Assembly: GCA_037444725.1 (NCBI GenBank)
Contig: JBBILW010000003.1
Coordinates: 1-38,804 of the forward strand
Direction of reading: 5' to 3'
Source of the DNA: Candidatus Jorgensenbacteria bacterium
Lineage (GTDB): Bacteria > Patescibacteriota > Minisyncoccia > UBA6257 > GWB1-50-10
Length of the DNA: 38,804 nucleotides
The position numbers and the translations under genes are program-made. Positions 13,948 to 31,555 of this stretch are shown in pieces (within the stretch, counting starts at the first letter, position 1; every line of letters begins with the position of its first letter). The notes below the pieces were generated by a model. The model was not told the DNA's origin. It worked only from the letters and a program-made list of their open reading frames with translations, and ran no database searches.

Positions 13948-14051
13948 AAACGCCCCTTTTGGGTTGGAGATATGTACTGCGGACATCCTACGCCTCAAAT
14001 ATTAGAAAAGCAACATAAACAAAAAAGCGCCTTTCGGCGCCTTTTTTTGTG

Positions 14052-14138
14052 CGGAGGGGGAGAGATTTGAACTCTCGAGGGACTTTCATCCCTGCACGAT
14101 TTCGAGTCGTGTGCCTTCGACCACTCAGCCACCCCTCC
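14052..14138 (-). tRNA. tRNA-Ser(CGA)
   Basis: GGAGGGG acceptor, anticodon arm CACGA-CTCGAAA-TCGTG, long variable arm, GTTCAAATC T loop. Confidence 0.95.
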
Positions 14139-14160
14139 TTATGTGCTGCGCATTCTTGTG

Positions 14161-14232
14161 TGCCCTCGCGAGGAATCGAACCTCGATCGACTCGTTAGGA
14201 GTGAGCCGTTCTATCCATTGAACTACAAGGGC
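14161..14232 (-). tRNA. tRNA-Arg(CCT)
   Basis: GCCCTTG...GAGGGCA; anticodon arm GCTCA-CTCCTAA-CGAGT with one A-C mismatch. Confidence 0.9.
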
Positions 14233-14285
14233 TCCCATGCACGGCAATCTATTTATACGATAAGTCGGAGGCGGTGTAAAGAATA

Positions 14286-14314
14286 TTGCCGTTTTTAAAA
14301 GGTTTCGGTATGAT
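14286..14314 (+). promoter_or_regulatory. Sigma70-type promoter for tRNA-Val/tRNA-Ala
   Basis: TTGCCG-17 nt-TATGAT, 11 nt upstream of tRNA-Val. Confidence 0.65.
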
Positions 14315-14325
14315 AGTTGAGTTCA

Positions 14326-14397
14326 GGGCGTTTAGCTCAGTGGTAGAGCGTCACATTGACATTGTGAAGGTCGCAGGTTCAATCCCTGCAACGCCCA
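14326..14397 (+). tRNA. tRNA-Val(GAC)
   Basis: GGGCGTT/AACGCCC acceptor; TCACA-TTGACAT-TGTGA. Confidence 0.95.
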
Positions 14398-14408
14398 CAG
14401 AAATTTCC

Positions 14409-14479
14409 GGGCCTATAGTAAAGTGGCATTACGCCTCCATGGCATGGAGGAGGTCGGGGTTCGATTCCCCGTAGGTCCA
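14409..14479 (+). tRNA. tRNA-Ala(GGC)
   Basis: G3-U70 acceptor GGGCCTA/TAGGTCC; CCTCC-ATGGCAT-GGAGG. Confidence 0.95.
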
Positions 14480-14654
14480 CAATCATTAAACACCGCTCTT
14501 GTGAGCGGTGTTTTGATTTGTCATACTAAGGGGAATCGAACGGGAAGGGGGTCGGGGAAACGGGAGTTTCCCCGTGGCGGAGCACACGAACCGCTGGGTT
14601 CGTGAGAGGCGAGTAATATGCGCGAGCCGACGTTCGCTTCCCCGTAGGTCCACA
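14480..14654 (+). repeat. tRNA-trailing element, copy A (terminator, inverted tRNA-Ala 3' end, 62-nt core, direct tRNA-Ala 3' end)
   Basis: Inverted copy 14518-14541 (19/24); core 14542-14603; direct copy gttcgcttccccgtaggtccaca 14632-14654 (22/23 vs 14459-14481). Confidence 0.9.
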
Positions 14655-24510: not shown

Positions 24511-24597
24511 GGAGGCGTGGCTGAGCGGTCGAAAGCGGCTTCCTGCTAAGAAGTCGTGGGGGGAACCCCACCGAAGGTTCGAATCCTTCCGCCTCCG
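24511..24597 (+). tRNA. tRNA-Ser(GCT)
   Basis: GGAGGCG/CGCCTCC; GCTTC-CTGCTAA-GAAGT; long variable arm. Confidence 0.95.
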
Positions 24598-24867
24598 CAT
24601 AAAAAACAAAAACACCGAAAGGTGTTTTTTGTTCGCGGAGCTGGAAGGATTCGAACAGGAGTGGGGTCGGGAGAACACTTGGTCTCCCGTATAGGAAATA
24701 GCTCCGCGGGAGCGTTTAGAAACCGTGGGCTTCTAAAGAGCGAGACCGTTGCGGTTGAGCGACGTTCGATTACCTTCCGCCTCCGCAAAAATAAACGGGA
24801 AACCTTTCTGGTGTCCCGTTTTATATTCGTTGCAGTTGAGTGATGCTCGATTCATTTCCGCCTCCGC
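24598..24867 (+). repeat. tRNA-trailing element, copy C (diverged core; two direct 3'-end copies)
   Basis: Inverted copy gcggagctggaaggattcgaac 24635-24656 (20/22); direct copies at 24764-24787 and about 24845-24867. Confidence 0.85.
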
Positions 24868-24926
24868 GAATGAAGAAAGTTGTCCCCTCTTGCAATGCGG
24901 CTTCATGACATTATTATGATATCTAT

Positions 24927-30324: not shown

Positions 30325-30370
30325 TCCCCGCAGTATCTATAGGATTCGGCGGGTTTTTTTATTTCTCTTT

Positions 30371-30560
30371 GTAGTCCCGGGGAGAATCTCCTTCGCCTCT
30401 CGCCCCGCTCGTCAGCGGGGCTCGGACTAGGCACCGCCTCACGTGCCTCGCTGCTGCTTGGCACATGCTCCGGCGTTCGATTCACCCGCGCGAGCCAAGT
30501 AGTTGGCTCGCTTGGGGCTATAAAAATATCCCTCCTTGCGGGTGGGATATTTTTCTTTAG
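30371..30560 (-). repeat. tRNA-trailing element, copy D (different core)
   Basis: Terminator 30522-30554; inverted tRNA-Glu 3' end 30475-30520 split by a hairpin; direct copy 30371-30388 (16/18). Confidence 0.75.
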
Positions 30561-30632
30561 TAGCCCCAGGGAGAATCGAACCCCCGTTTATGCCGTGAAA
30601 GGGCATTGTCCTAACCACTAGACGATAGGGCC
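30561..30632 (-). tRNA. tRNA-Glu(TTC)
   Basis: GGCCCTA/TGGGGCT; ATGCC-CTTTCAC-GGCAT. Confidence 0.95.
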
Positions 30633-31267: not shown

Positions 31268-31339
31268 GCCCTTGTCGTTCAACGGATAGGACGCAAGATT
31301 GCGGATCTTGTAATCGAGGTTCGATTCCTCGCGAGGGCA
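31268..31339 (+). tRNA. tRNA-Arg(GCG)
   Basis: GCCCTTG/CGAGGGC; CAAGA-TTGCGGA-TCTTG. Confidence 0.93.
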
Positions 31340-31555
31340 CAAAAAAGAAAACACCCATGACGGGTGTTTTCTTGTATTTGTGCTCGCGAGGAATCGAACG
31401 GGAAGGGGGTCGGGGAAACGGTAGTTTCCCCGTGGCGGAGCATACGAACCGCTGGGTTCGTAAAAGCGAGCGACGAGCGAGCTTTGTTCGCTTCCTCGCG
31501 ACGACCGAGCAAGAGCGAGGAAGTACTGAGCGCAGCAGCGCGAACGTAGGGCACA
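31340..31555 (+). repeat. tRNA-trailing element, copy B
   Basis: Inverted copy 31377-31399; core 31400-31461 is 60/62 identical to 14542-14603; direct copy 31486-31501 plus 31548-31555. Confidence 0.9.

Follow-up and report, generated by a model that had tools for sequence, protein, structure and literature searches.

Integrative elements that target tRNA genes use tyrosine integrases, which cross over in the T-loop. Quasipalindrome or template-switch mutagenesis makes inverted copies from nearby sequence at hairpins without a dedicated enzyme, and corrects a few bases. A short repeat found behind four tRNA genes of a Candidatus Jorgensenbacteria bacterium was compared with these and related systems. 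The DNA analysed (38,804 nucleotides; contig JBBILW010000003.1 of GenBank assembly GCA_037444725.1, positions 1 to 38,804 of the forward strand) is referred to as the window. Judged from its sequence, the repeat is a previously undescribed family of elements of about 95–130 nt in the Parcubacteria/Paceibacteria of the candidate phyla radiation (CPR), and it was filed under the small non-autonomous interspersed repeats. The interpretation that fits it best, with a probability put a little short of even, is a non-autonomous mobile structured repeat that spreads within the genome through T-loop homology and receives its arms from the target, probably by template switching. The moving unit would consist of the core and a short T-loop-like right end. 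Its targets appear to be the segment from the T-loop to the 3' end of any tRNA or transfer-messenger RNA (tmRNA) gene and, more rarely, look-alikes, for example the AHIDxGK codons of EF-G and LepA read on the antisense strand.

The repeat shares with tRNA-targeting integrative elements the start in the T-loop, a tRNA 3' end that is left intact and repeated downstream, accretion in tandem and the use of tmRNA targets. It differs from them in its length (ca. 110 nt), in the absence of integrase and cargo, in an extra inverted arm, in the 19 different tRNAs that a single core family occupies in one genome and in arms that are apparently remade with each jump. When the loci were tested as att scars, a direct repeat of the tRNA 3' end was present; a structured core of 95–130 nt was found between the repeats, with no integrase or cargo. 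Like miniature inverted-repeat transposable elements (MITEs) and repeats of the REP/BIME, Correia, ERIC and RUP types, the repeat is short, non-coding, multicopy and hairpin-forming, varies in number among relatives and breaks assemblies. Unlike a MITE, it has no element-borne terminal inverted repeats (the common parts are only 4–10 nt at the right end and the ...GAAC junction), its target duplication is of no fixed length (ca. 15–90 nt) and no parent insertion sequence or transposase was found here (Y1_Tnp, IS110, resolvase and TnpB-type, and the surroundings of 114 loci; DDE not searched). Its specificity for the tRNA/tmRNA T-loop and its covarying junction with invariant unpaired bases further separate it from MITE- and REP-type repeats. 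Integron attC sites and the CTX-phage attP(+) site are alike in functioning on one strand and in the order site, spacer, inverted site, body, site, and may be alike in being imperfect hairpins with conserved irregularities and an AAC...GTT base; here, by contrast, the inner sequence is conserved and not only the shape, the arms follow the target, no IntI-type enzyme was identified and there is no cassette array. Quasipalindrome mutagenesis is alike in its hairpin-linked inverted copies, whereas here a 100-nt cassette would move between loci. The genome gave no match to a Y1 HUH transposase, which sets the repeat apart from repeats derived from IS200/IS605 or of the REP/RAYT type, and no match to a reverse transcriptase (RT; RVT_1), which sets it apart from group II introns, retrons and diversity-generating retroelements (DGRs). 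The element falls outside MITE/REP repeats, tRNA integrative elements, HUH repeats, retroelements and attC-type sites as these are defined (attC-type sites by their IntI-type integrase and cassette array), and is somewhat like the first two.

The genome (651 kb, 37 contigs, 96.7 % complete) includes the window as contig C3. tRNA genes were called with ARAGORN and the Rfam tRNA model. Genes for tRNA-Ala (14409–14480), tRNA-Ser (24511–24598), tRNA-Glu (30560–30632, minus strand) and tRNA-Arg (31268–31340) were obtained at the four positions named in an earlier sequence-only reading, in which each gene was said to be followed by the same layout. In the description of this layout, P denotes the copied tRNA segment (T-loop to 3' end), segment 'a' the terminator-like hairpin, X' the inverted arm and D the distal direct copy. 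The elements of the window are as follows:

14409–14480, plus strand: tRNA-Ala(GGC), the host gene, with the copied segment P at 14459–14481 (ARAGORN, Rfam, repeat analysis)
14488–14513, plus strand: terminator-like hairpin (segment 'a') between tRNA-Ala and the element; 11-nt arms 14488–14498 and 14503–14513, 100 % complementary, with a T-run after them
14526–14541, plus strand: Ala X', reverse complement of the T-loop and the T-stem 3' strand; 5' strand of the closing helix
14542–14631, plus strand: Ala family-A core (R1 114 bits, covariation, fold)
14542–14552: purine-rich joiner of the Ala core
14553–14574: P1 hairpin of the Ala core, loop GGGA
14575–14584: joiner of the Ala core
14585–14604: P2 hairpin of the Ala core
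14605–14631: variable P3 region of the Ala core
14632–14654, plus strand: Ala D, copy of the tRNA-Ala 3' end; 3' strand of the closing helix, with an element-type change in its T-loop part
24634–24787, plus strand: family-A variant with an extra hairpin behind tRNA-Ser(GCT); X' 24634–24656, core 24657–24763, D 24764–24787 (R1 81 bits, sequence)
30370–30520, minus strand: family-B element behind tRNA-Glu(UUC); split inverted arm with an inserted hairpin, different core, D 30370–30387 (sequence; nhmmer; one bridging independent contig)
31379–31501, plus strand: family-A copy behind tRNA-Arg(GCG); X' 31379–31399, core 31400–31485, first part of D 31486–31501 (R1 114 bits, sequence, fold)

At the Ala locus, the two halves of the direct repeat (14459–14481 and 14632–14654) are identical at 22 of 23 positions, and the inverted arms (14459–14474 and 14526–14541; 16 nt) are 94 % complementary. 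These arms enclose the perfect 11-bp stem of the terminator; the long imperfect palindrome that had been described around the terminator is therefore present. The 62-nt cores of the Ala and Arg loci were found to differ at two positions, exactly as the earlier figure of 60/62 identical positions implied, and a 37-nt core pattern matched twice in the window and not once in 100 shuffles. The common layout was recovered at all four tRNAs, but its core is not the same throughout: that of Glu is different (family B), and that of Ser is the family-A variant with an extra hairpin. The distal copy at the Arg locus is interrupted by an unrelated small repeat of 47 nt.

For the genome-wide search, a covariance model of the family-A core (R1) was built from 19 copies (alignment A2); searches with R1 return full-length alignments only. 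The model identified 20 family-A copies in the genome, of which 19 lie behind tRNA genes and the remaining one behind a protein gene on contig C7. The count of four loci given earlier was thus an underestimate. Family B is present in four copies (nhmmer), each behind a tRNA and with the Glu locus included. Further tRNAs are followed by mini-hairpins, solitary arms or truncated cores; with these included, our own reading of the loci downstream of tRNAs assigned some element or remnant to 27 of the 45 tRNA genes. Remnants retain X' and the first 3–30 nt of the core, and tandem, nested and truncated copies are common. Two copies directly adjoin their tRNA and lack an intervening terminator. In 19 of 44 tRNAs, the final 20 nt recurred in the 450 nt downstream with at least 15 of 20 positions matched, compared with 2 of 44 in the 450 nt upstream, and the layout is therefore far beyond chance and far commoner than four loci. 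One family-A host is a tRNA-Phe that was detected by ARAGORN only if a 214-nt intron was allowed; this gene, tRNA-Phe(GAA), has the intron in its anticodon loop and lies at C9:16919–17205, just upstream of locus L010. In another genome, a group I intron hit was observed beside tRNAs (L049:2–205).

Logan contigs were used solely as an assembly check. In an independent assembly of the same sample, contigs break inside the cores, where the depth is ca. 110–160 as against ca. 7 in unique sequence, and the whole Glu locus is spanned by one contig. The possibility of an assembly artefact had been raised with the original description; no sign of one was seen.

The core is a four-way junction closed by pairing of X' and D, as deduced from single-sequence folds (closing helix and three hairpins) and comparative alignment. 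Structure statistics were calculated from alignment A3 (82 copies from 30-odd genomes). In this alignment 91 % of the cells are paired, and 23 of the 26 pairs show double changes; this level of covariation was reached by 0 of 500 shuffles, nor did slid controls come near it. The covariation lies in P1, P2 and the closing helix. The joiners between the helices are purine-rich, more than 90 % conserved and unpaired, and P3 is kept as a hairpin and not as a sequence, even between orthologous copies. GAAC is present in 73–74 of 81 distinct copies; its partner is GTTC in some and GTGA in about 40 of 82, where tandem G·A pairs replace two Watson–Crick pairs of the closing helix. P1 has a GNRA-like loop, and G·U pairs outnumber A·C pairs on the plus strand (53 versus 29). 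The tandem G·A pairs, the excess of G·U and the GNRA-like loop favour the tRNA strand. Wobble pairs are rare in P1 and P2 (ca. 1 %), which leaves single-stranded DNA and RNA equally possible.

No described family had been recognised in the sequence-only reading. This holds for Rfam 15, in which no family reached the gathering threshold (window; Ala element at E≤10; 20 other loci at E≤1; four more loci) and the matches in the flanks were to tRNA, tmRNA and group I intron only. It also holds for the titles and abstract openings of the literature on tRNA-linked repeats and structured RNAs in the CPR, which contain no description of the element; supplementary motif lists were outside this scope. 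A match to RAGATH-28 in one copy (23 bits over P1 and the following purine-rich stretch; gathering score 45.3) did not recur in 20 loci at E≤1 and was treated as chance. Readings of the core as a K-turn, C/D box, tRNA-like cloverleaf or minihelix were judged by eye from the sequence and did not fit.

The origin of the arms was followed in pairs of recent cores: His/Phe in this genome (100 % identity), tRNA-Asp/LepA in another (96 %) and Val/Arg in a third (97 %). Identity runs from the first joiner to the short T-loop-like right end, and the sequences are different beyond. Gene, X' and D were then compared over their first ten positions in 62 of 78 copies. At the 157 differences between gene and D, X' agrees with the gene in 143 and with D in 12. 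Behind tRNAs with the rare T-loop start GTCC, X' has GTCC and D has GTTC in five of five copies. These three lines of evidence argue that the target serves as template for the inverted arm. The first 4–10 nt of D, on the same comparisons, are supplied by the element and the rest of D by the target. GTCC in place of the usual GTTC at the start of the T-loop region was observed in several tRNAs of other genomes of the order, at loci L046, L053, L054, L056 and L077.

X' in insertions is 9–20 nt long and starts from T-loop position 53 of the local target. The boundary of the direct repeat is measurable in 42 copies only; in 35 of them it lies between −2 and +6 nt relative to the tRNA end, and the repeat may extend 9–50 nt further, through the terminator. 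Its overall length ranges from ca. 15 to ca. 90 nt. In tRNA-Ala(UGC), P and D have a species-specific substitution in the acceptor strand in common. Most D carry the trailing bases of the gene itself and not CCA; five cases of D with CCA beside a gene without it were noted by reading, and three opposite cases. Two candidate explanations of these patterns were rejected. A continuous snap-back at the terminator would explain X' at the Arg and Gly(UCC) loci and fails at the His locus and at ectopic sites, and an adenine-specific (DGR-like) pattern of changes between gene and D is not kept consistently, non-A changes being present as well.

A comparison of empty and filled orthologous tRNA loci had been proposed, and empty sites were indeed found in congeners. 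At tRNA-Ala(GGC), three congeners have no element and a fourth has a truncated remnant, and tRNA-Val(GAC) carries family B in two congeners and is empty here. Five congeners contain 4–14 copies each, and the range in the genus is 4 to 20. For 31 of 78 cores, the nearest relative is another copy of the same genome behind a different tRNA; for two of 78 it is a copy of another genome behind the same tRNA. By this sequence comparison, cores are clustered by genome, not by tRNA. Spread mainly between genomes by transformation and homologous recombination, with the tRNA gene serving as both homology arms, was rejected as the main route on these counts. ComEC and DprA are present in the genome, so single-stranded DNA enters the cell.

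R1 was also used to search 151 sampled genomes of the order. Hits were obtained in 59 of them (1–20 copies each), and presence is all-or-none by family, for example 7/7 and 6/6 in two families and 0/7 in several others. The exact core pattern was found on at least 114 contigs, with titles mostly of Parcubacteria-group lineages and a few other labels; the titled lineages are Paceibacteria or Minisyncoccia and Lipton-, Colwell-, Jorgensen-, Morani-, Yanofsky-, Uhr- and Harrisonbacteria. The viral contigs of IMG/VR gave 0 matches to the pattern. Sixty loci from other genomes were taken from the top of 150 listed R1 hits, this genome and hits within ca. 300 nt of a contig end being excluded. A tRNA on the same strand ends at most 75 nt upstream in 42 of them and farther upstream in two. 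Four loci lie behind tmRNA-like 3' ends (one Rfam-confirmed) and three behind tRNA-like ends missed by ARAGORN; three have no upstream copy, one is unusable and five are ectopic. Locus L066 runs into a contig end and was excluded from later counts.

Ectopic copies have direct repeats of 45–90 nt and inverted arms of 10–13 nt. They are located antisense to the codons for the N-terminal AHIDxGK motif of EF-G (two sites, one of them a tandem array) and LepA, at the 5' end of another gene and antisense to the 5' half of a tRNA-Leu gene. The EF-G and LepA sites are similar to the T-loop motif and, on the complementary strand, to the left end of the core. Among the neighbouring proteins, EF-G is the most frequent (9 of 114 loci). 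At the EF-G loci L084 and L095 and the LepA locus L092, the 5' untranslated region, the start codon and about 15–17 codons are duplicated, which places a pseudo N-terminus upstream of the real gene; L095 consists of two tandem units of 190 nt.

Candidate mobilising enzymes were sought by profile searches of the genome, which gave no match to RVT_1, Y1_Tnp, IS110 DEDD, resolvase/serine recombinase or TnpB zinc ribbon; DDE families were not searched. The genome contains one tyrosine recombinase gene, Xer-like by reading of its translation. This gene is convergent to, and directly 3' of, the tRNA-Leu(UAG) element (L041, C1:28891–32403). No integrase or transposase family recurs near the 114 core loci. 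Co-occurring integrase, HUH or RT genes had been named as a check on mobility; in this genome, nothing beyond the one Xer-like recombinase was found. RVT_1 RTs, mostly open frames of 300–400 aa, occur in 74 of the 151 genomes of the order, and none here.

An element that copies the tRNA end of its target in both orientations was one of the proposals of the original description. It fits best with the empty orthologues, the copy numbers of 4–20, the ectopic duplications, the recent pairs and the agreement of X' with the gene (143/157); its RT-driven form finds no support in this genome, with no RVT_1 match. The spread would take place by copy-choice within the genome. The nascent plus strand would depart from the target past the gene, in many cases at the terminator hairpin, and would copy the T-loop region of the target backwards to give X'. 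It would then enter a donor copy through the common T-loop complement, copy the core and return to the target by T-loop homology, where a second pass over the tRNA end would produce D. Homologous recombination between direct copies could delete or amplify the unit. The conserved fold would most likely be active as a single-stranded plus-strand form, DNA or RNA, needed by the cycle. We infer both this order of template switches and that there is no need for a dedicated enzyme. That the element represents a new kind is possible, though on balance doubtful; it would be an enzyme-free four-way-junction cassette that has the T-loop as a two-way homology handle and arms rebuilt by polymerase template switching, and that could in this way settle at nearly all tRNA and tmRNA genes of the ultra-small CPR genomes, and/or an RNA, one per tRNA, read by a conserved host factor.

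Several points weigh against spread by copy-choice. No insertion was seen in progress, and an exact search of metagenome contigs for the empty-site allele of the Ala locus gave 0 matches. Multi-step template switching is a rare type of event, yet 20 copies are present in one genome. The conservation of the unpaired joiners (>90 %) across families of the order exceeds the needs of copy-choice and suggests that a factor binds there or that the element works as an RNA. The stop of D at the tRNA end (35/42) is not predicted, and hints that D is under selection or that the tRNA transcript takes part. At the His locus and at ectopic sites, X' and the terminator palindrome are not continuous, so a simple snap-back at the terminator is not general. 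RTs occur in 35 of 59 element-positive and 39 of 92 element-negative genomes (odds ratio 2.0, p=0.047, uncorrected for kinship); an RT match is missing in 24 of the 59 element-positive genomes, this one included. The mobilising enzyme may be of an unrecognised type. The conserved unpaired bases and the stop of D are unexplained by the model; the mobile repeat is therefore kept just under the even mark, and a host RNA is entertained as an unlikely candidate of some substance. The two may overlap, and a small part of the probability was assigned to none of the readings considered.

Such an RNA would be non-coding and useful to the host, one per tRNA; its junction would bind a conserved factor, and X' and D would act on tRNA transcripts that read through, whether in their processing, in quality control or as a two-state switch. 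Mobility would only seed the family, and the explanation is in this respect compatible with the mobile repeat. It accounts for the covariation in P1, P2 and the closing helix together with invariant unpaired purines, for a GNRA-like P1 loop and tandem G·A pairs that are sensible on the plus strand only, and for a P3 hairpin kept despite sequence change between orthologous copies. The tRNA 3' end is retained in D and marks its limit in 35 of 42 measured copies, while the neighbouring sequence is unrelated; P and D of tRNA-Ala(UGC) have the same species-specific acceptor substitution, and two copies adjoin their tRNA without a terminator. Usually, however, a terminator lies between tRNA and element, and there is no space for a separate promoter, which disfavours the two-state RNA as well. 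The logic of the arms is common to family B, the 47-nt repeat and the mini-hairpins, which again speaks against both forms. Copies are missing at orthologous tRNAs of congeners and in 92 of the 151 genomes of the order; truncated, nested and tandem copies exist, as do antisense insertions at EF-G and LepA, and the wobble content of P1 and P2 is low for an RNA family.

It is rather improbable that the copies are folded single-strand recombination substrates in the manner of integron attC or CTX-phage attP, in which the X':D helix would mimic the double-stranded T-arm region for an Xer-like or unrecognised recombinase. A strand-specific fold would suit this explanation, as would the conserved AAC/GTT base of the closing helix with a mismatch, bulge or tandem G·A a few pairs in, the layout of site, spacer, inverted site, body and site, the position of the sole tyrosine recombinase gene next to the tRNA-Leu(UAG) copy and the presence of ComEC and DprA. 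An element-borne site, however, would not yield an X' that matches the new target and not the donor, as is found in recent jumps; moreover, the duplication varies from ca. 15 to 90 nt, no recombinase recurs near the 114 loci, and the one present resembles an ordinary Xer protein (reading of translation). A role as a decoy att site, suggested earlier, found no support either: the Xer-like enzyme is the only tyrosine recombinase, and no integrase family recurs near these loci.

A retro-element was considered very improbable. An RT acting in trans would switch between core RNA and tRNA transcripts and snap back, and the resulting X'–core–D hairpin cDNAs would integrate. D usually ends at the tRNA 3' end, five D with CCA beside a gene without it (by reading) are in line with this explanation, and RTs are frequent in the order (74 of 151 genomes) and mildly enriched with the element. 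Against this stand the lack of an RVT_1 match in this genome, which has the highest copy number among those searched, and in 24 of the 59 element-positive genomes, the trailing bases of the gene in place of CCA in most D, the three opposite cases and long duplications that run through terminators and gene 5' regions. Decayed att scars of integrase-borne islands or prophages at tRNA genes, for which the direct tRNA 3'-end repeats from the T-loop and their tandem arrays could be cited, are largely refuted and scarcely credible in view of the same covarying core of ca. 100 nt at 19 different tRNAs, the inverted arm, the lack of cargo and integrase, the clustering of cores by genome and the 0 matches of the core pattern in IMG/VR.

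If the mobile-repeat reading is true, a mode of mobility would be added in which the arms are remade from the target, in a genome without transposase, integrase or RT. The element is found in a lineage with genomes cut to ca. 0.6 Mb, and would be a case for testing how far template switching in replication moves DNA. For annotation, D mimics att sites or tRNA fragments, the cores break assemblies and the 5' ends of EF-G and LepA are duplicated. If expressed, a structured RNA with one copy per tRNA in the CPR would add a new level to tRNA biology. The conserved core is usable as a marker of Parcubacteria-type genomes.

Two further features lie beside the elements of the window:

24845–24868, plus strand: third, degenerate direct copy of the tRNA-Ser 3' end, past a second terminator (read from sequence)
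31502–31555, plus strand: 47-nt small repeat (31502–31548) inside the Arg D, with the rest of D at 31549–31555 (sequence; related copies on contigs C22 and C9)

The stretch 3' of the Ser element (24788–24868), with its second terminator and third tRNA-Ser end copy, resembles an older layer of the same process. The small repeat at the Arg locus belongs to a separate GC-rich repeat of 47–55 nt (window 31502–31548, C22:4158–4205, C9:22267–22315 and C9:20381–20463), one copy of which is placed directly 3' of the inverted arm behind tRNA-Glu(CUC). Downstream of tRNA-Asn (C2, 51342–51414; L020) and of tRNA-Lys(CUU) (C4, 28034–28106), two or three mini-hairpins stand in tandem; each is almost coreless and ends in a copy of the acceptor 3' strand, with the complement before it. 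Upstream of the Ala element, the window contains a tight cluster of four tRNA genes (14051–14480), with Ser and Arg on the minus strand and Val and Ala on the plus strand; in this cluster, an element is present only behind the last gene of the plus-strand pair.

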